NCBI GenBank assembly: GCA_044358835.1
Contig: JBIKNF010000009.1
Coordinates: 6,174-70,173, forward strand
DNA length: 64,000 nucleotides
Reading direction: 5' to 3'
Source of the DNA: Vampirovibrionales bacterium
GTDB taxonomy: Bacteria; Cyanobacteriota; Vampirovibrionia; Vampirovibrionales; JAJTHC01
The notes under the pieces were generated by a model. That model saw nothing but the letters and a program-made list of their open reading frames with translations, did no database searches and was not told the DNA's origin. Shown here in pieces: positions 1,916 to 58,956 of this stretch (positions within the stretch are counted from its first letter, which is position 1; the number at the start of each line of letters is the position of its first letter). A program made the position numbers and the translations under genes.

Positions 1916-2818
1916 ATGGTCAGTTTTAACCCTTCTACGTCGTTACGTTCTGGTAGTTCTCTATCTAACTTATCCCATTTCGAAGCATTACAAAAAATAG
2001 CTAGAGAAGAGTTTGGTTTGCAAAGCGTTATTTTTAGAGATAACCTGCAAACCGCTCAAGAAGTCATCACGGTGTTAAGAGATTTAAAAGAACGTCGCTA
2101 TGATCTTTCGGGTATTTCTATTGTGGTTTCTGAAAAGGCACTTAAAGCAAAAAATCGCTGGGCATATAATATACCACATACTGCGCCTGATGAATGGATT
2201 AACGAACGTTTTCAAGCATTTAAGTATACACTTCCCCCTCATGAGCAATCTATTACAGATCCAATCAAGCAAAGAAAAATACTGGAAAATCCTTCTATAG
2301 AGGGATGGACTGACTATACTAGAAAAGGTTCTAAACAGAGGCCTTCAATCACACTTGATCCACTCCATAACTATTCTTCAGAGCAAATACATGAGATAAT
2401 ATATCATGAACTAGGGCATGCTTTACACTATAAGCGCTTGGCTCCATATATTGACAAGGCTCCTATGAACATGAACAACATCAAAGGTAAAGGGAAAAGC
2501 AAATTCGAGCTTATAAAATGGGTGAACTATGAAGCGTTTAAAAAGCTGTATGCGGCATTAGGTTTTCTTGATAATGGTGTTCCAACGAAACTCCCCAAGA
2601 AACTTATTGCAAGAAGGTTAACACCTTATGGGTGTGTAAATGTAATGGAGTTTGTGGCGGTGTATTTTCAAGAAGCCATGTCACAGTCTTCTTCTAAACC
2701 CACTGAGGCTTATCCGTTTTATAAGAAAGTAATGCATGTGTTTGAATCGTTTCGGTTAAAGTGGATATACATGAAGTTAAAAGGTCCTGAAATTCGTCCG
2801 AGGCCTTCAAAACCATGA
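1916..2818 (+). CDS. Hypothetical HExxH zinc-metallopeptidase-like protein, AT-rich
   Basis: 300 aa. Contains 'IIYHELGHALHY', a HELGH signature reminiscent of M78/ImmA-IrrE zincins. GC is ~38% against ~52% in the neighbours. An 'aggat' RBS lies upstream. Its stop overlaps the next gene's start (ATGA). Confidence 0.55.
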   Translation: MVSFNPSTSLRSGSSLSNLSHFEALQKIAREEFGLQSVIFRDNLQTAQEVITVLRDLKERRYDLSGISIVVSEKALKAKNRWAYNIPHTAPDEWINERFQAFKYTLPPHEQSITDPIKQRKILENPSIEGWTDYTRKGSKQRPSITLDPLHNYSSEQIHEIIYHELGHALHYKRLAPYIDKAPMNMNNIKGKGKSKFELIKWVNYEAFKKLYAALGFLDNGVPTKLPKKLIARRLTPYGCVNVMEFVAVYFQEAMSQSSSKPTEAYPFYKKVMHVFESFRLKWIYMKLKGPEIRPRPSKP

Positions 2819-3642
2819 ACTTAAAACAACGTAAAGCCCAGCTCGATGCCTTGGTGGCGACCTATCATCACCCTGATTTTGTGCGAGACGACCCCATGCA
2901 GTTTGCGGCGCCGTTTAAGCATGATCTTGCTCGATGTGAAGCCAACGCCTTGTTGTCTGCCTTATTGAGCTACGGCAGGCGAGAAGTCATCATCCGCAAG
3001 CTCACCGAATTATTCGAACGCCTAGAAGCCCCCGTCTACGACGTGCTTCAGGCGGAAAGTCTCGTGCCTGTGGAAAAACGCTTGGCAGGCTTCATCTACC
3101 GCTTTAATACGGGGGCGGATATTGTTCATTTACTGCGGTGGTGGCACGCCTTTTATGAAAGGCATCCGTCGCACTTGGCGTGTTTAGAAAGTTTGCCCCA
3201 AACGCAACACGGCGTGACCCGTGACACCCTCAAACCCGTGATGACCGCTTGGCTCGATGCGTGGTTGCCTCCTGATTTTTTAGCAGGGGGCTATAGTTAT
3301 GGCACACGATACTTGGTGCCTCATCCAGCTACAGGCGGAGCCTGCAAACGTCTGCACATGGCGTTACGCTGGCTGTGCCGAGATGATGCGTTTTTAGGCG
3401 AAAACGCGGTTGACTTTGGCTTGTGGACGCACGTGATTCCACCCCATGCCTTGCTCATGCCCATGGATACCCATGTGGGGCGGTTGTCTCGGCAGTGGGG
3501 GTTGCTCAAGCGAAACAGTACGGATTGGAAGGCTGCGGAAGAACTCACGGCACGACTGGCTCGCTTTAACCAGGGGGATCCGTGTCGTTACGACTTTGCA
3601 TTTTTGGGTTATGGCGTCGATGAGGTGCGGGGTCGACTATAG
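2815..3642 (+). CDS. Conserved hypothetical protein, possibly DUF2400/TIGR02757-like, with an HhH-GPD-like 'PxDTHVxR' motif
   Basis: 275 aa, GC-rich. The motif 'LLMPMDTHVGRLSRQWGL' resembles the catalytic region of EndoIII/MutY/AlkA-type glycosylases. The family name is from memory, not from a search. Confidence 0.5.
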   Translation: MNLKQRKAQLDALVATYHHPDFVRDDPMQFAAPFKHDLARCEANALLSALLSYGRREVIIRKLTELFERLEAPVYDVLQAESLVPVEKRLAGFIYRFNTGADIVHLLRWWHAFYERHPSHLACLESLPQTQHGVTRDTLKPVMTAWLDAWLPPDFLAGGYSYGTRYLVPHPATGGACKRLHMALRWLCRDDAFLGENAVDFGLWTHVIPPHALLMPMDTHVGRLSRQWGLLKRNSTDWKAAEELTARLARFNQGDPCRYDFAFLGYGVDEVRGRL

Positions 3643-3667
3643 CCGCCTTTAGAGCTTCCTGTTCAGG

Positions 3668-3756
3668 GTCTATACTTTGTCGCTACGATTATTTTGTTCC
3701 GTTATGTACGTCTATGTACACGCCCTCACAAAATAATCTAGGCTCCTCGTCTAGCC
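3668..3756. repeat. Left arm of a ~90-bp imperfect inverted repeat flanking hicB
   Basis: The reverse complement of 4300..4395 aligns to 3668..3756 at ~85% identity with one 6-7-nt indel. Shared blocks include 'gtctat', 'ttgtcgctacgatt' and 'tacacgccctcacaaaa.aatctaggctcct'. Confidence 0.75.
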
Positions 3757-3796
3757 ACCTGTACAGAAAGCTCTAAAAAACGGCTATATGAAGCCA

Positions 3797-4231
3797 TTAG
3801 ATCCACACATCTTTCGTGTTGTTGAGAAAAAGGGCATCCCCTTTACGACGTTGCGGATTCGGTACAGTCTCAAATTGTAGGGCGATCAACCGTTCAATAA
3901 ACTCCCCTGCACTGATTTTCTGGGCTTTGGCTGCTTTTTTCAAAAAGTCTTTTACCTCAGGTCTTAGCTTGGTGTTGAAGGTTTCACGTCCTAAAGCGGG
4001 GCGTCCCACAGGTTTGGGTGTTGAAAGTTCGGCGACTTTGTTTTGAGCTAAATCTTCTAAGCAGTCATCCAACATTTCAGACAGCATTTCCATGGCGGAA
4101 TCTTTGCTCATGCCTGTGCCAATGGCGATGTCCCAAGTGGGGCAGTATGCGGTAAAGCAATTGTCTTCTTCGCTCCATTCAACACGAGCGTCTTCCATGA
4201 GTTGTTTTTTACTTAGGTTCACGATTGGCAT
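3797..4231 (-). CDS. hicB: HicB-family antitoxin: HicB N-domain plus C-terminal ribbon-helix-helix
   Basis: 144 aa. 'WSEEDNCFTAYCPTWDIAIGTGMSKDSAMEMLSEML' matches the HicB N-terminal fold signature (DGGYxAxxPDLPGC...G.T.EEA). The C-terminal 'GRPALGRETFNTKLRPEVKDFLKKAAKAQKISAGEFIERLI' is RHH/CopG-like. Confidence 0.65.
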   Translation of the reverse strand: MPIVNLSKKQLMEDARVEWSEEDNCFTAYCPTWDIAIGTGMSKDSAMEMLSEMLDDCLEDLAQNKVAELSTPKPVGRPALGRETFNTKLRPEVKDFLKKAAKAQKISAGEFIERLIALQFETVPNPQRRKGDALFLNNTKDVWI

Positions 4232-4299
4232 CTTTCATTTTTCTTAAAAACTGTCTCACATAAACATCCATAGTGTTCGTTAGATGAAACAGGCTATGA

Positions 4300-4395
4300 G
4301 GCTATTCTAGGAGCCTAGATTTTTTTGTGAGGGCGTGTAGTGAGACCTACATAACTAAACAAAAAAATCGTAGCGACAACGAAGAGACCATAGAC
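4300..4395. repeat. Right arm of the inverted repeat flanking hicB
   Basis: See the left arm. Lies in the hicA-hicB spacer and ends 5 nt before the hicA-like stop. Confidence 0.75.
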
Positions 4396-4399
4396 CGTT

Positions 4400-4576
4400 T
4401 TATATAACGGATACTATATAACTTGACGTTTGGAAGCCTTTACTGTGATGTATGGCAAAGGGCATCAGCAAAAGTCCGTCAATATCAATGACCTTATGGT
4501 GCTTGGTGCTGTGTGTAATGGAACAACCATAGGAGCGTACCAGTTTTTCAAAGGCTTTTTCATTGAGTGGACTCAT
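4400..4576 (-). CDS. hicA: Possible HicA-like mRNA-interferase toxin; start taken at the internal Met
   Basis: An 82-aa ORF that I truncate to 59 aa. 'KLVRSYGCSITHSTKHHKV...MPFAIHHSKG' loosely fits the HicA/YcfA pattern (GSHxxF...PxH). It lies immediately upstream of hicB on the same strand. Similarity is weak. Confidence 0.4.
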   Translation of the reverse strand: MSPLNEKAFEKLVRSYGCSITHSTKHHKVIDIDGLLLMPFAIHHSKGFQTSSYIVSVI

Positions 4577-4672
4577 CACATTTTTCAACCTGTCGTTCAA
4601 CACTTTTAGTATAATATAATGCGTACGATATGTCAATATCGTACGCACAAAATCCTTTTAATAGGCTTCGAC

Positions 4673-7600
4673 TTAAGCTAAGTCGCCTGTGGATTCCGCT
4701 GTAGAGAGGGCTTCAAGTGGAGCAATCGGTTGAGACTCCCCCGCGTCTTCAGCACCTTCCACATACTGCTTTTCCATGCCGTGACTGCGGGCAAAGGCTT
4801 CGGCGTCAAAATTTTCAGACACTGGCACATCGATTTGAATCTTACTGCGGAAAAATAGGCTGACCACATCGTTTTGAATCTGCCACATCAAACGCTGGAA
4901 CAATTCAAAGGCTTCACGCTTGTATTCCACCAAGGGATCCTTCTGCCCGTAGGCTCGCAAGCCAATGCCGTCGCGTAACATATCTAAATTATGGAGGTAG
5001 TCGACCCATCGGTTGTCAACCACCTGAAGCGTGATGTCTCGTTCCATTTGACGCAAGGGGTGCAAACGCTCAGCAATGGTGGCTTCGCTCAAGCCTTGGG
5101 CTTCCCATTCAGCGCGTTGAAGGGCGTCTTGCCCGCTGAGCTGAACACCGTGTTCTTGCTGAAGTTGTTGCATCAATTGCCCGATTTGTGTTTCTAAATC
5201 CACGTAAAGTTCCTGGGCTTTGGCTTGCAACAGGGCAATCAACTCACGAAACTCCTTGTTGTGCAGATCTTCCACACGAAGGACGGCTTGTAAATTGGGA
5301 ATCATTTCAACGGCGGATTGGTACACGTCTTGCAAGGCGCGTTGGGTGTCGGCGTCTTGCCCGCCAGCGACGAATTCAAGGGTCAGGGTGCTACTGACGC
5401 ATCGTTCCATGACTTTGTTGAGCATGTGAAGCATCGACTCTCGCAACCCATCCAGTTCTAGCACGCTTTTACGCTGACGATAAATCAACTTGCGCTGTTC
5501 GGTCAACACGTCGTCATACTGTAACACGTTTTTGCGGATGTCAAAGTGATAGGCTTCCACCTTTTTTTGAGCCACTTCAAGCGAAGAGCTCAGTAATTTG
5601 TCCGACAACGGAATACTTTCTTCAAAGTTCATGGCCGTCATCGCATTCATCACCATTTGAGACGGAAACAAACGCAATAAACTATCTTCTAGGGACAAGA
5701 AAAACTGCGTGGTGCCAGGGTCTCCCTGACGACCGGCGCGCCCGCGTAACTGGTTGTCAATACGGCGACTTTCATGGCGTTCACTGCCAATAATGTACAA
5801 GCCCCCTAAATCCAGCACGGCTTGACGCTCCGCATCCGTTATCGGTTGGCGTTCAGCGACTTTGGCCTTGAATTCCGCTTCGCTAAGGCTTTGCCAATCG
5901 ATGCCTTGGGCGTGGAGTTCGTCTTTGACCATGGCTTCGGGGTTTCCGCCTAGTAGAATATCCGTACCACGACCGGCCATATTGGTGGCAATGGTCACAG
6001 CGCCTAAACGCCCGGCTTGGGCGACAATGGACGCTTCTTGGGCGTGGGCTTTGGCATTTAACACGTGATGCGGTATACCCTTTCGAATTTGGTCAATCGC
6101 TACAATGCTACCTTCCATATTTTCAAGCCATTTGGCCGTTTCATAAGACGCCTGCAAGCTGGCTTTAAAAGGCTCAACAGTCGTTTGCCACGCTTCATAG
6201 GTAAGGGTTTCAATTTCAGCGAAAAGCGGGGTGAAGGCGGTAATGGCGTCCTGAAGCTTATGCTGGCTAAGCACTTCTAAAAAGCGCGCGGATTTGCCTT
6301 TAAAGTAGTTGATATGAGGCGTGGTTTCGCGAATGAGTTGCGACACATATTCAGATTGTTCAATAGTGGTGGTTCCCACCAACACGGGGCGCCCTTCATG
6401 GTGACGCATGGCAATAGATTCGGCGACTTTGAGGTATTTTATGGCTTCGCCTTTAAAAATTTGATCAGGTAAATCTTCACGTACATCTTTACGGTTGGTG
6501 GGAATGGCAGTGACTTCCAAGTTATAAATTTTGGAAAACTCACTTTCTTCGGTCATGGCTGTTCCCGTCATTCCTGAAAGTTTGGGGTACAAACGAAAGA
6601 GGTTTTGAAAGGTAATACTGGCAAGCGTTTGGGTTTCGTCTTGAATATCCACCTTTTCTTTGGCTTCAACGGCTTGATGCAACCCATCGCTCCAGCGACG
6701 CCCTTCCATCAGGCGACCCGTAAACTCATCCACAATCACGACTTGGTCATTTTGAACAACGTAGTCTACATCTCGCTTGTAGAGGTGCTTGGCTTTTAAG
6801 GCTGAAATTAAGTGATGCGCCAAGCTCAAGTTTTCGGTGAATAAGTCATCTAAACCCAATAAGTTAGCGGCTTGATCCAAGCCTTCATCGGTCAACACCA
6901 CGTTCTTGGTTTTGGCGTCTGAAGTAAAGTGTTTGTCTACTTCAAACAAGGGGGCTAGTTTGGCCATGGTAAAGTAGGTTTCAGCCGACTGTTCGAGCTT
7001 GCCGCTAATAATCAACGGCGTGCGGGCTTCATCAATCAAAATACTGTCGACTTCGTCAATCACCGCATAGTGAAAGGGACGCTGGGTCATGGCATCTAGG
7101 GTGTTGGCCATGTTGTCTTTTAAGTAATCAAAGCCAAACTCATTATTGGTGCCATACGTAATATCCGCGGCATACGCTTGTTTTTTGACAAAAGGGGGTT
7201 GAAAGCCCGTATTGCTTGAAAGTACACAATCGACGCTTAAGCCTAAAAACCGGTAGAGTTGCCCCATCCATTCGCTGTCTCGTTTAGCCAAGTAATCATT
7301 CACAGTCACCACATGGACGCCTTTTCCCGTAAGGGCATTGAGGTACACGGGCAAAGTAGCCACAAGCGTTTTTCCTTCTCCTGTGCGCATTTCAGCAATG
7401 TTGCCTTTGTGAAGCACATAACCGCCAATAATTTGAACGTCATAATGACGCATGCCCAACACACGCTTACTCGCTTCACGACACACCGCAAACGCTTCAG
7501 GCAACATGGTATCGAGCAATTCTTGTTCCGCTTTGTAATCTTCTTTAAGGTCGGCTTCTTTGGGGCGGTTGCGGAGTTCTTCTTGAAAGAAAGCGGTTTT

Positions 7601-54793: not shown

Positions 54794-54934
54794 CTTATTC
54801 ACAAACATTCGACGATGAAGAGAGATACTTAATTTCAAATCTAAGTTTAGAAAACAAATCTTTTGTTTTATGCGCTTAAATTTGATTGATTTTGTGTGAA
54901 AACAAACCAAGAGAGAAAAGGAGAGAACCCCACC

Positions 54935-55795
54935 ATGGGTATTATTATTAACACCAACATGCAGTCTATTAGTTCACAACGTTTATTAAACGTCAACACC
55001 ATGCACTTGGCCAGAAGCTACGAGAAATTATCGTCAGGCTTGAAAATTAATCGTTCCAGCGATGACGCGGCAGGACTGCAAATTTCAGAACGCTTACGTT
55101 CACAAATCCGAGGTTCCCAACGTGCTTTAGACAACACCCAAGACGGTGTCAACGTCTTAAGCGTTGTGGATGGCACCTTCCAAACAGTCGTAGAAAACCT
55201 TCAACGTATGCGAGAACTCAGTGTTCAAGGTGCAAACGACTCTAACTCTTCCCAAGAACGTAGTGCGATCAATATTGAAATCTCTCAGCTTTCGGCAGAT
55301 TTAAACCGAATCGCCACAGCCACGCAATTCAACAAACGCAACTTACTTAATGGGTCCATCACCAATTATTACCTTCAGGTAGGTGCCAATTCAAATTCTC
55401 AATTAGATCGTATTGATATTGCTAATGTGGGTGGCATAAATCCCTTTAGTAGTATCGCTGCTTCAGCCTTGTTTAATCTACCCGCAGGGTCATCACTTCG
55501 TGTGAACACGAACAGTTCTGCACTGAATACCATAAGTAAAATTGATACCGCTCTTGCTCGCATTGGTAATCGAAGAGCTACTTTAGGTGCGATGATTAAT
55601 CGCTTAGAATCCAGCAGTAAGAATTTAAATATCGCGGTTGAAAATCTCTCTGCATCAGAATCTCGAATTCGCAATGCGGATATTGCCAAGGAATCGGCCG
55701 AAATGACCAAACATCAAATTTTGCAACAGGCAGCGGCTCAAGTCTTGTCTCAAGCAAATCAATTGCCTCAGCTAGCCTTGAAGTTGTTGCAATAG
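54935..55795 (+). CDS. fliC: Flagellin (short, ~286 aa)
   Basis: Start at 54935 with an 'aaaggagag' RBS. N-terminal 'MGIIINTNMQSISSQRLLNVN...LSSGLKINRSSDDAAGLQISERL'. C-terminal 'ATLGAMINRLESS...ESRIRNADIAKESAEMTKHQILQQAAAQVLSQANQLPQLALKLLQ'. Confidence 0.9.
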   Translation: MGIIINTNMQSISSQRLLNVNTMHLARSYEKLSSGLKINRSSDDAAGLQISERLRSQIRGSQRALDNTQDGVNVLSVVDGTFQTVVENLQRMRELSVQGANDSNSSQERSAINIEISQLSADLNRIATATQFNKRNLLNGSITNYYLQVGANSNSQLDRIDIANVGGINPFSSIAASALFNLPAGSSLRVNTNSSALNTISKIDTALARIGNRRATLGAMINRLESSSKNLNIAVENLSASESRIRNADIAKESAEMTKHQILQQAAAQVLSQANQLPQLALKLLQ

Positions 55796-55909: not shown

Positions 55910-56285
55910 GGTTTTTCTATAGTGTTTGCTAGATAAAACGGTCTAGGGTCTTTTCGTTGCCGCGACGATTTTTTTTTGCTTGCTTATGGTCGTTTGTGTA
56001 CACACCCGCACAAAAAACCGAGGCGCTTAGAATAGCCTCATCGTCTGTTTCATCTTTCAAACACTATAAAAGGGGATAAAGAGGTAAAAATGGCCTAATT
56101 TCCGACACACAGAATACCCTTTTTTGACACACGAAAGTCTATTTTTTACTCGATTTTCAAGGAGTTTGCTGGGTTGTGAAGACCTGTTGAAAAAAGCCAA
56201 TCTTTTTTAGTACAACCTATTTTTAAGTCCTTTGCCCAGTGGCTAAACCCCACTATTTTTGGGATTTCTAGCTTCGTTTTGAGCG

Positions 56286-56362
56286 GGTGTTTCCCTCACC
56301 CTAGCCTTCTTCCATAGGGAAAAGCGACAAAGCAAAAGGACTTTTGCAGAACTTTTTATAAG
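56286..56362 (+). repeat. Dispersed palindromic repeat family, locus B: single forward unit
   Basis: 'ggtgtttccctcaccctagccttcttccatagggaaaagcgacaaagcaaaaggacttttgcagaactttttataag'. Contains the hairpin 'gcaaaag gac ttttgc'. Confidence 0.65.
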
Positions 56363-58796: not shown

Positions 58797-58956
58797 TATA
58801 GAAGGCTCTGCGAAAGGGCGTTTTACTCCCTCTCCCTTAGGGAGAGGGTTGGGGTGAGGGATTCGGGATGCCCAATTATAGCTGGTGTCCCTCCTCCTAA
58901 CCTCCTCCCTAAGGGAGGAGGAACAAAGCAAAAAGACTTTCGCAGAGCCTTCTATA
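58797..58956. repeat. Dispersed palindromic repeat family, locus C: two units head-to-head
   Basis: Perfect 20-bp terminal inverted repeats: 'tatagaaggctctgcgaaag' at 58797..58816 and 'ctttcgcagagccttctata' at 58937..58956. Internal perfect palindromes at 58828..58848 ('ccctctccc tta gggagaggg') and 58901..58921 ('cctcctccc taa gggaggagg'). The core 'acaaagcaaaaagactttcgcagag' matches locus B. Confidence 0.75.

Follow-up and report, generated by a model that had tools for sequence, protein, structure and literature searches.

Correia elements of Neisseria (CREE/NEMIS) have TATAG...CTATA ends and duplicate a TA target. They are non-coding, about 104-157 bp long, and present in multiple copies with terminal inverted repeats, lying mostly between genes with some gene-disrupting copies (PMC3184786). 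Their RNA forms long hairpins that RNase III cleaves, and some of the elements carry promoters (PMC3184786, PMC10969869). In this study, we analyzed a stretch of 64,000 nucleotides from a Vampirovibrionales bacterium (contig JBIKNF010000009.1, positions 6,174 to 70,173; the whole stretch is called the window below), in which the arms of an inverted repeat lie on both sides of a hicB-like gene. Our results suggest, with a probability of about 0.87, that the arms are two independent insertions of a non-coding palindromic MITE (short for miniature inverted-repeat transposable element) of ~147 bp, which has TAG...CTA ends, duplicates its TA target, and is present in multiple copies in the Vampirovibrionales, the predatory non-photosynthetic relatives of cyanobacteria. 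The best-supported view is that the arrangement is incidental: one MITE entered a dispensable toxin gene and another a junction between genes, and the pair of arms did not arise as a means of controlling the antitoxin.

The element family of the hicB arms can be likened to Correia elements by description only. The host phylum differs, the terminal repeats of our family vary by subfamily while its internal core is invariant, and no IHF-type site was recognized here. The ERIC/IRU repeats of Enterobacteriaceae, with ERIC-like sequences in Photorhabdus and Xenorhabdus, are imperfect palindromes of ~127 bp with terminal repeats, target duplications, and 5'-TA-3' at both ends (PMC3184786). These repeats occupy transcribed spacers close to gene ends. 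The hicB-arm family is also palindromic with TA ends and is likewise situated near gene ends, but its sequence is unrelated and it has several subfamilies with swapped arms. Cyanobacterial MITEs (Nezha, MaeMITE, and those of Anabaena) are 130-170 bp long with very stable predicted hairpins, and their mobility was derived from empty and filled sites in relatives (PMC3184786). They share with our family the wider phylum, the similar size, the hairpin, and the empty/filled-site evidence. However, the terminal repeats of Nezha are common to the insertion sequence ISNpu3, while no partner of the hicB-arm family was found in the fetched loci.

It is reported that bcr1 of the Bacillus cereus group comprises mobile repeats of ~155 bp, which are transcribed and whose hairpin is kept by compensatory changes (PMC3184786). 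These changes match the covariation in our family, although bcr1 has 5-bp direct repeats and not TA. In the summary given by the same review, the IMU composite of Enterobacter cloacae pCHE-A is an integron enclosed by two MITEs of identical sequence, and a 5-bp duplication flanks this unit as a whole (PMC3184786). In both cases a pair of miniature elements brackets a cargo, but the copies described here come from different subfamilies and were acquired on separate occasions, and their cargo stays at a syntenic site. The REP/REPIN-RAYT definition does not cover the hicB-arm units, which are ~147 bp long with long terminal repeats and a TA that is duplicated at filled relative to empty sites. 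We therefore suggest a functional likeness to Correia, ERIC, Nezha, and bcr1, which is one of analogy, and claim membership of none.

The first-pass annotation of the window had noted arms of about 85% identity over ~90 bp, and this similarity was borne out. By blastn, 84.4% of the 90 nt at 3667-3756 were identical to those of 4300-4389 read in reverse complement (E 4.6e-24), and the local alignment of the arms scored 110 against 16.1 +/- 2.5 (maximum 27) in 200 shuffles. A repeat search found a longer form at 3638-3756 and 4300-4418, which was 119 nt long and 76% complementary with 543 nt between the arms. The hicB-like open reading frame (ORF) at 3797-4231 on the minus strand was the only long ORF inside, in agreement with the claim that no other gene lies between the arms. 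The claimed anchors at the two ends, 'gtctat' and 'ctagcc', stood in part; TAGCC is common to both arms, while the rest is out of register, with GTCTATAC opposite GTCTCTTC in the best alignment. The limits given for the arms were too short, as one arm extends into the DUF2400 gene and the other into the hicA-like ORF, in each case at the 3' end. Neither is the pair a sole one, as the window contains a third copy and related genomes contain more than 100.

The left arm is a complete palindromic L-type copy of 147 bp at 3640-3786 on the plus strand, with TA at 3638-3639 and 3787-3788 and terminal inverted repeats TTTAGAGCTTCCTGTTCAGG and CCTGTACAGAAAGCTCTAAA that agree at 90%. Its limits were sharp in an alignment of 38 copies that included the flanks, and a 20-nt inverted repeat (3648-3667 / 3758-3777) encloses the stretch that was first noted as the arm. 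The right arm, a complete R-type copy of 146 bp, occupies 4271-4416 on the minus strand and interrupts the hicA-like gene toward its 3' end. The bases next to it are TA at 4417-4418 and CA at 4269-4270 (TG on the minus strand). The third copy, also R-type, was found at 55920-56066 on the plus strand with TA at 55918-55919 and 56067-56068. The spacer that holds it follows the ORF at 54896-55795, which is called flagellin-like from its sequence only and lies upstream. The third copy was 77.6% identical to the right arm over 125 nt (blastn match 55918-56041; nhmmer E 3.5e-44). The density in the window is thus about one copy per 21 kb (3 in 64 kb).

Each arm alone is predicted to fold as a hairpin of ~150 nt with z-scores of -4 to -10, and the self-hairpin of the left arm reached -52 kcal/mol on the plus strand (z -6) and -66 kcal/mol on the minus strand (z -10). 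The three window copies have a common core of ~90 nt, and their outer ~30 nt differ yet remain self-complementary. The two arms are members of different subfamilies, with outer ends that have no similarity past TAG (TAGCCGCCTTTAGAGC... versus TAGTATCCGTTATATA...). They resemble one inverted repeat only in that every subfamily has the ~90-nt core and the two copies happen to be oppositely oriented.

A 17-nt core pattern was scanned across one genome per species. The matches were scattered single sites in unrelated taxa and many contigs of Vampirovibrionales metagenome-assembled genomes (MAGs), often several per contig and often at contig ends. In practice, the repeats break MAG assemblies. A nhmmer profile made from the three window copies gave at least 125 copies without overlap in the fetched loci, which represent at least 8 Vampirovibrionales assemblies, and at least 137 when the hicB loci were added, and had no matches in the fetched non-Vampirovibrionales loci. 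The counts per Vampirovibrionales MAG, which are lower bounds, were 51 in JAJTHC01, 37 in JBILSS01, 20 in CANGYO01, 7 in JBIKTR01, and fewer in other assemblies. When 38 full-length copies were aligned with their flanks, they were alignable only inside TA-TAG...CTA-TA and the flanks were unrelated. TA was present on both sides in 24 of the 35 scorable full-length copies, and most of the others were one base off. The copies were 146-152 bp long and fell into at least six subfamilies (L, R, T3, T4, T5, and X), each with its own terminal repeats.

Some copies of the family were chimeric and some were nested. A nested copy at L098 2785-2935 lies in the loop of another copy, at a TA that is duplicated. 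Copies at L018 1684-1833 and L078 7807-7955 have arms from two subfamilies, which points to recombination through the shared core. Taken together, the element fits the descriptive definition of a MITE by its size (below ~500 bp) and lack of coding capacity, its terminal repeats, its TA duplication, and its copies with insertion polymorphism. A protein-coding core was considered, as AGGAG is followed by a GTG-started ORF; it was rejected because the spacing between the two conserved blocks described below varies from 46 to 49 nt, so that the frame is lost between subfamilies. No match to the element was found by blastn in plasmid and phage collections, and its pattern had none in viral contigs, so a plasmid, phage, or viral origin was also rejected. 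The same holds for a known RNA family, as the arms had no Rfam match at the gathering score or at E up to 10, and this also excluded rRNA- or tRNA-like arms, which had been named as an alternative identity. In the window, Rfam 15 gave only three tRNAs at the gathering score and nothing relevant at E<=10 in 3500-4750. Our literature search found no paper linking Vampirovibrio with MITEs, and an abundant MITE family of the Vampirovibrionales is, apparently, documented here for the first time.

A bin labeled 'Gammaproteobacteria' (JBEISK01; L020, L030, L071, L079, and L092) also carries the hicB-arm family. The flanks of its L092 copy are homologous to the Vampirovibrionales locus L025, and the taxon label or the binning is probably wrong.

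The comparison of the hicA-hicB-DUF2400 locus among relatives indicated that the two arms were gained separately, as their presence and absence vary independently. All HicB-like homologues with fetched context were located between secA and the DUF2400 gene. In the window and in L109-L111, which encode an identical HicB-like protein (100%), the right (R) site holds an R-type copy and the left (L) site an L-type copy, and hicA is frameshifted and cut by the MITE to 58 codons. In JBIKTR01 (L112; HicB 94%), the R site is empty, the L site holds an L-type copy, and hicA is intact (72 aa) and runs 23 nt past the start of hicB. In GROS_A (L115; HicB 65%), the R site is empty, the L site retains a 19-nt terminal remnant (TATAGCCGTCTTTAGAGCTTT followed by TATAG), and hicA is again intact at 72 aa, with an overlap of 14 nt. 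GROS_B (L117, L118; HicB 85%) has an R-type copy at the R site, a remnant at the L site as in GROS_A, and a hicA with the frameshift and MITE at 58 codons. In CANGYO01 (L113, L114; HicB 74%), the R site is empty, the L site shows no trace of an element, and hicA is ended at 42 codons by a different L-type copy at another site. Both arms together were found in the window lineage only.

The empty sequence at the R site reads GAAGTGT-TG-GATG, and the filled one CAAGTTA-TA-[element]-TG-GATG. The cleanest TA duplication was that in hicA of CANGYO01 (L113), where GCCA-TA-[element]-TA-CATCAC stands against the empty GCCATACATCAC of the window and L112. The hicAB locus alone thus contains three insertion-polymorphic sites. 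The left-arm remnants at L115 4420-4445, L117 712-737, and L118 3315-3340 consist of 19 nt of the arm end and then TATAG. Their appearance is that of a scar left by excision or of an element with an internal deletion, and the remnant now gives the stop codon of DUF2400.

The toxin-like gene was broken in 3 of the 5 lineages seen, and it was struck independently in two lineages by one element family, with a frameshift in addition in one of them. The hicA-like remnant of the window (4400-4576, minus strand, 58 codons) is a pseudogene with a +1 frameshift just ahead of the MITE (GGCTTCCAAACG in the window versus GGCTCCAAACG in L113), and the right MITE contributes the final 5 codons and the stop of the truncated ORF. 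At the other end, the convergent DUF2400 gene (2815-3642, plus strand; Pfam PF09674, E 7.6e-56) has as its stop the TAG at 3640-3642, which is the first three bases of the left MITE. In L113, which lacks the left MITE, this gene encodes 279 aa and the stop of the convergent hicB is 4 nt away. These elements therefore alter gene ends, by supplying a new stop codon and by truncating a toxin gene.

From these data, the left L-type copy would have landed at the convergent junction of the hicB-like and DUF2400 genes, and the right R-type copy in the 3' part of a hicA-like gene that was already frameshifted. We presume that a transposase of the IS630/Tc1-mariner type, which duplicates TA, mobilized the copies in trans, an assignment that is made because of the 2-bp TA target. 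The insertions would have left hicB an orphan, which the upstream promoter still transcribes but whose translation is no longer coupled to that of hicA. Any effects of the hairpins on hicB mRNA, such as termination, RNase III cleavage, or an internal promoter, would be by-products.

The two genes probably represent a divergent HicAB-like module. The hicB-like ORF is intact (144 aa), and its ratio of non-synonymous to synonymous substitution rates (dN/dS) of 0.10-0.20 in all comparisons indicates purifying selection. As in HicAB type II modules, a small upstream gene is followed by the antitoxin with an overlap in L112 and L115, the low-confidence model of the protein suggests a HicB-like N-terminal domain and a ribbon-helix-helix-like tail, and a candidate palindromic operator lies over the promoter. 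They differ in that neither protein here reaches a Pfam/NCBIfam threshold and homologues of the HicB-like protein are only 12. The assignment of the gene to the HicB family by the first-pass annotation is thus weak; it fits the gene order, the overlap, and the palindromic operator, but not the profile models. The HicB-like protein had no Pfam/NCBIfam family at E<=0.01, and its best Pfam matches at E<=10 were unrelated or weak (e.g., TacA1, 0.042). The name given by the Joint Genome Institute (JGI) is 'predicted RNase H-like HicB family nuclease'.

An AlphaFold2 model of the HicB-like protein (8 sequences; predicted local distance difference test, pLDDT, 61) showed three strands (16-20, 25-30, and 35-40) and a helix (43-62), followed by a pair of helices at the C-terminus, which suggests an N-terminal three-strand-plus-helix domain and a C-terminal ribbon-helix-helix-like region. 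With this low-confidence model, Foldseek ranked 2dsy (TTHA0281) first with a probability of 0.99 but an E-value of 0.38; TTHA0281 is a protein of the HicB family. Further matches were HicB of B. pseudomallei (6g1n/6g26, probability 0.3) and the Arc repressor (probability 0.89), and the profile search of the PDB gave a CopG-family regulator, weakly (E 0.05). Homologues formed 12 clusters among 5.8 billion proteins. In the fetched contexts, the family is confined to one syntenic site of the Vampirovibrionales. Among the homologues P0001-P0012, the N-terminal half splits sharply into two groups, and the putative DNA-binding, C-terminal half is almost invariant. As for the hicA-like protein, the HicA_toxin model (PF07927) matched the L115 orthologue weakly (E 0.084; 53 of 58 model positions covered; 13.4 bits where the cut-off is 27) and did not match the window or L112 proteins, and the profile search of the PDB gave no match.

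It had been proposed that the arms might be a duplicated promoter/operator driving convergent antisense transcription across the antitoxin, and we found no support for this. The probable native promoter/operator of the hicAB-like operon stands upstream of hicA at 4608-4648 on the minus strand (TTGACA-17-TATACT, 11/12 matches), where a 13-bp palindrome (GTGCGTACGATAT/ATATCGTACGCAT) overlaps the near-consensus sigma-70-type promoter. The motif of promoter plus palindrome was kept in L112, L113, L115, and L118, and so across all five lineages, even at 65% HicB identity. Judged from sequence, it is a candidate for an ordinary operator.

The sequence conservation of the element was concentrated in two internal blocks, GTTGTCGCTACGA and TCTAGGCTCCT, which are non-complementary, lie 48 +/- 1 nt apart, and are near-invariant in 103 copies of at least six subfamilies. 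The outer arms and the central stem vary between subfamilies yet stay complementary, and the variants of the central stem include TTTTTTTG/CAAAAAAA, TTATTTTG/CAAAATAA, and TTCTCGATGTG/CACATCTGCGAG. Paired cells made up 94.9% against 81% in shuffles, and changes on both sides were found in 223 cells against 89. The covariation score was 0.31, compared with 0.10 in shuffles and 0.03-0.07 in slid controls, and these covariation counts rest on few subfamily-level events. In 43 copies, the outer helices were paired in 92-95% of cells, and 42 of the 43 folded better on one strand, by 12 kcal/mol on average. The orientation of the copies relative to neighboring genes showed no bias, with 38 sense and 46 antisense copies at 3' ends and 29 of each at 5' ends, and an orientation-dependent cis function was rejected on this ground.

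Several observations weigh against two ordinary MITE insertions. The ~0.9 Mb of fetched loci, which are a biased sample, yielded neither a transposase nor an autonomous element whose ends match; the search covered isolated ends, the ORFs close to them, and units of 0.6-3 kb bounded by matching TATAG...CTATA ends, and it retrieved only further MITE copies. The right-hand duplication at the R site of the window is TG and not TA. At three clean orthologous sites, the element differed by 1.3-3.3% and the flanks by 9-13% (Fisher p 7e-6 to 6e-4), so that orthologous copies had diverged 4 to 9 times less than their surroundings, which is not expected of neutrally decaying relics. Between the window and GROS_B, the synonymous divergence (dS) of hicB was 0.56 beside such a slowly diverging element. 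The best-conserved parts are the two internal non-palindromic blocks and not the terminal repeats, which is unusual for a transposase-bound MITE. Lastly, all seven pairs of copies less than 700 nt apart, including that of the window, were convergent inverted pairs in what is a small sample from multi-family repeat clusters, and the pairing of elements may not be wholly random.

The slow divergence is not obviously due to homogenization within a genome, as the R-type copies of the window are ~78-84% alike while the orthologue is 98.7%. Assembly collapse of the repeats is unlikely, as some variants that differ from most of the family are common to the orthologous R copies. The blocks, the covariation, the strand bias, and the slow divergence could each be accounted for by recent spread, by ectopic conversion, or by selection on a structured module. 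The residual interest of this family lies in its invariant core and in how slowly orthologous copies diverge.

These same features suggest that the element may not be a simple transposase-driven MITE but a structured RNA or single-stranded DNA module, REPIN/RAYT- or bcr1-like, whose internal-loop blocks are recognized by a protein and which is under selection; the two arms would still be independent copies. The near-invariant blocks, the arms and stem that differ yet remain complementary, the pairing and covariation above controls, the one-strand folding preference, and the low divergence of orthologous copies all fit this explanation. However, the lack of orientation bias speaks against it, the covariation reflects few independent events, and terminal repeats would co-vary in any case, since a single transposase has to fit the two ends. 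Cut-and-paste elements typically show nested insertions and TA duplications like those seen here, and no Rfam family matched the element. We consider this explanation unlikely. Such a module would serve, for example, as a protein-binding hairpin for mobility or gene control. Slightly less likely again is the stronger form, in which the module is functional and selected across the Vampirovibrionales and the inverted pair at this locus makes a double-stranded RNA that governs the orphan hicB-like gene.

Another explanation is that the pair was exapted at hicB, either as a duplex of ~75 bp cut by RNase III or through a promoter-like site in the right arm that drives the orphan gene. In the fold of 3630-4430, the minimum-energy form of either strand paired the arms together over 75-78 bp, and the inter-arm duplex was predicted at -136 kcal/mol against -105 for two self-folds. 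The giant stem-loop that the first-pass annotation proposed as a means of isolating hicB mRNA is therefore thermodynamically possible, but it is not a conserved design, as only the window lineage has both arms, and for this reason we regard the stem as an accident. During transcription the arms would fold locally first, and ribosomes on hicB would oppose the long-range stem. The promoter-like site in the right-arm core (CTCACA-16-TAGAAT, 4331 to 4304) is directed toward hicB; it is weak, with 9/12 matches, and absent from L-type copies. Although the Correia elements act both as RNase III substrates and as promoter carriers (PMC10969869), exaptation here has a poor chance of being correct, and the inter-arm stem and any right-arm promoter activity would be lineage-specific side effects. 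We see no special regulatory architecture of hicB at this locus but a pair of mobile elements, and a false lead is removed.

The remaining explanation takes the arms and hicB as a composite, MITE-flanked cassette that carries the antitoxin gene between genomes like the IMU-integron. The presence of two inverted miniature elements around one small gene agrees with it, and the IMU composite is described, in the review's summary of it, as moved by a transposase in trans (Poirel 2009, PMC3184786). The idea of a MITE-like cassette was correct in that each arm is a dispersed, TA-flanked hairpin MITE. As a cassette it is largely refuted and very improbable. The outer ends come from different subfamilies and have TAG alone in common, there is no duplication outside the pair, and the outer flanks have TA on both sides as for every single copy. 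The hicB homologues with known context occupy one syntenic site with zero, one, or two arms, and the arms were gained at different times. Because of the different outer ends, the separate gains, and the strict synteny, nothing suggests mobility of an arm-hicB-arm unit.

Inverted pairs of the hicB-arm family were also found to flank several unrelated single genes in relatives. At L098 1995-2786, such a pair brackets the RNase P RNA gene rnpB (2181-2551, 213 bits), and at L063 380-1074, another brackets a cluster of three tRNAs.

Other palindromic repeats were observed in the same genomes. A second dispersed repeat of the window, which is rich in GGGAGAGGG/CCCTCTCCC and unrelated to the hicB arms, occurs at 591-703, 56282-56337, and 58822-58927, and one of its copies lies ~210 nt from the third MITE copy. 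Another palindromic repeat of ~130 nt was found at L089 2999-3132, L098 2560-2707, L035 3060-3192, and L021 2696-2808. It has the apical TGTACGTCTGTGTACA in common with the hicB-arm family and is without the two conserved blocks. The intergenic regions here are clusters of several miniature elements.

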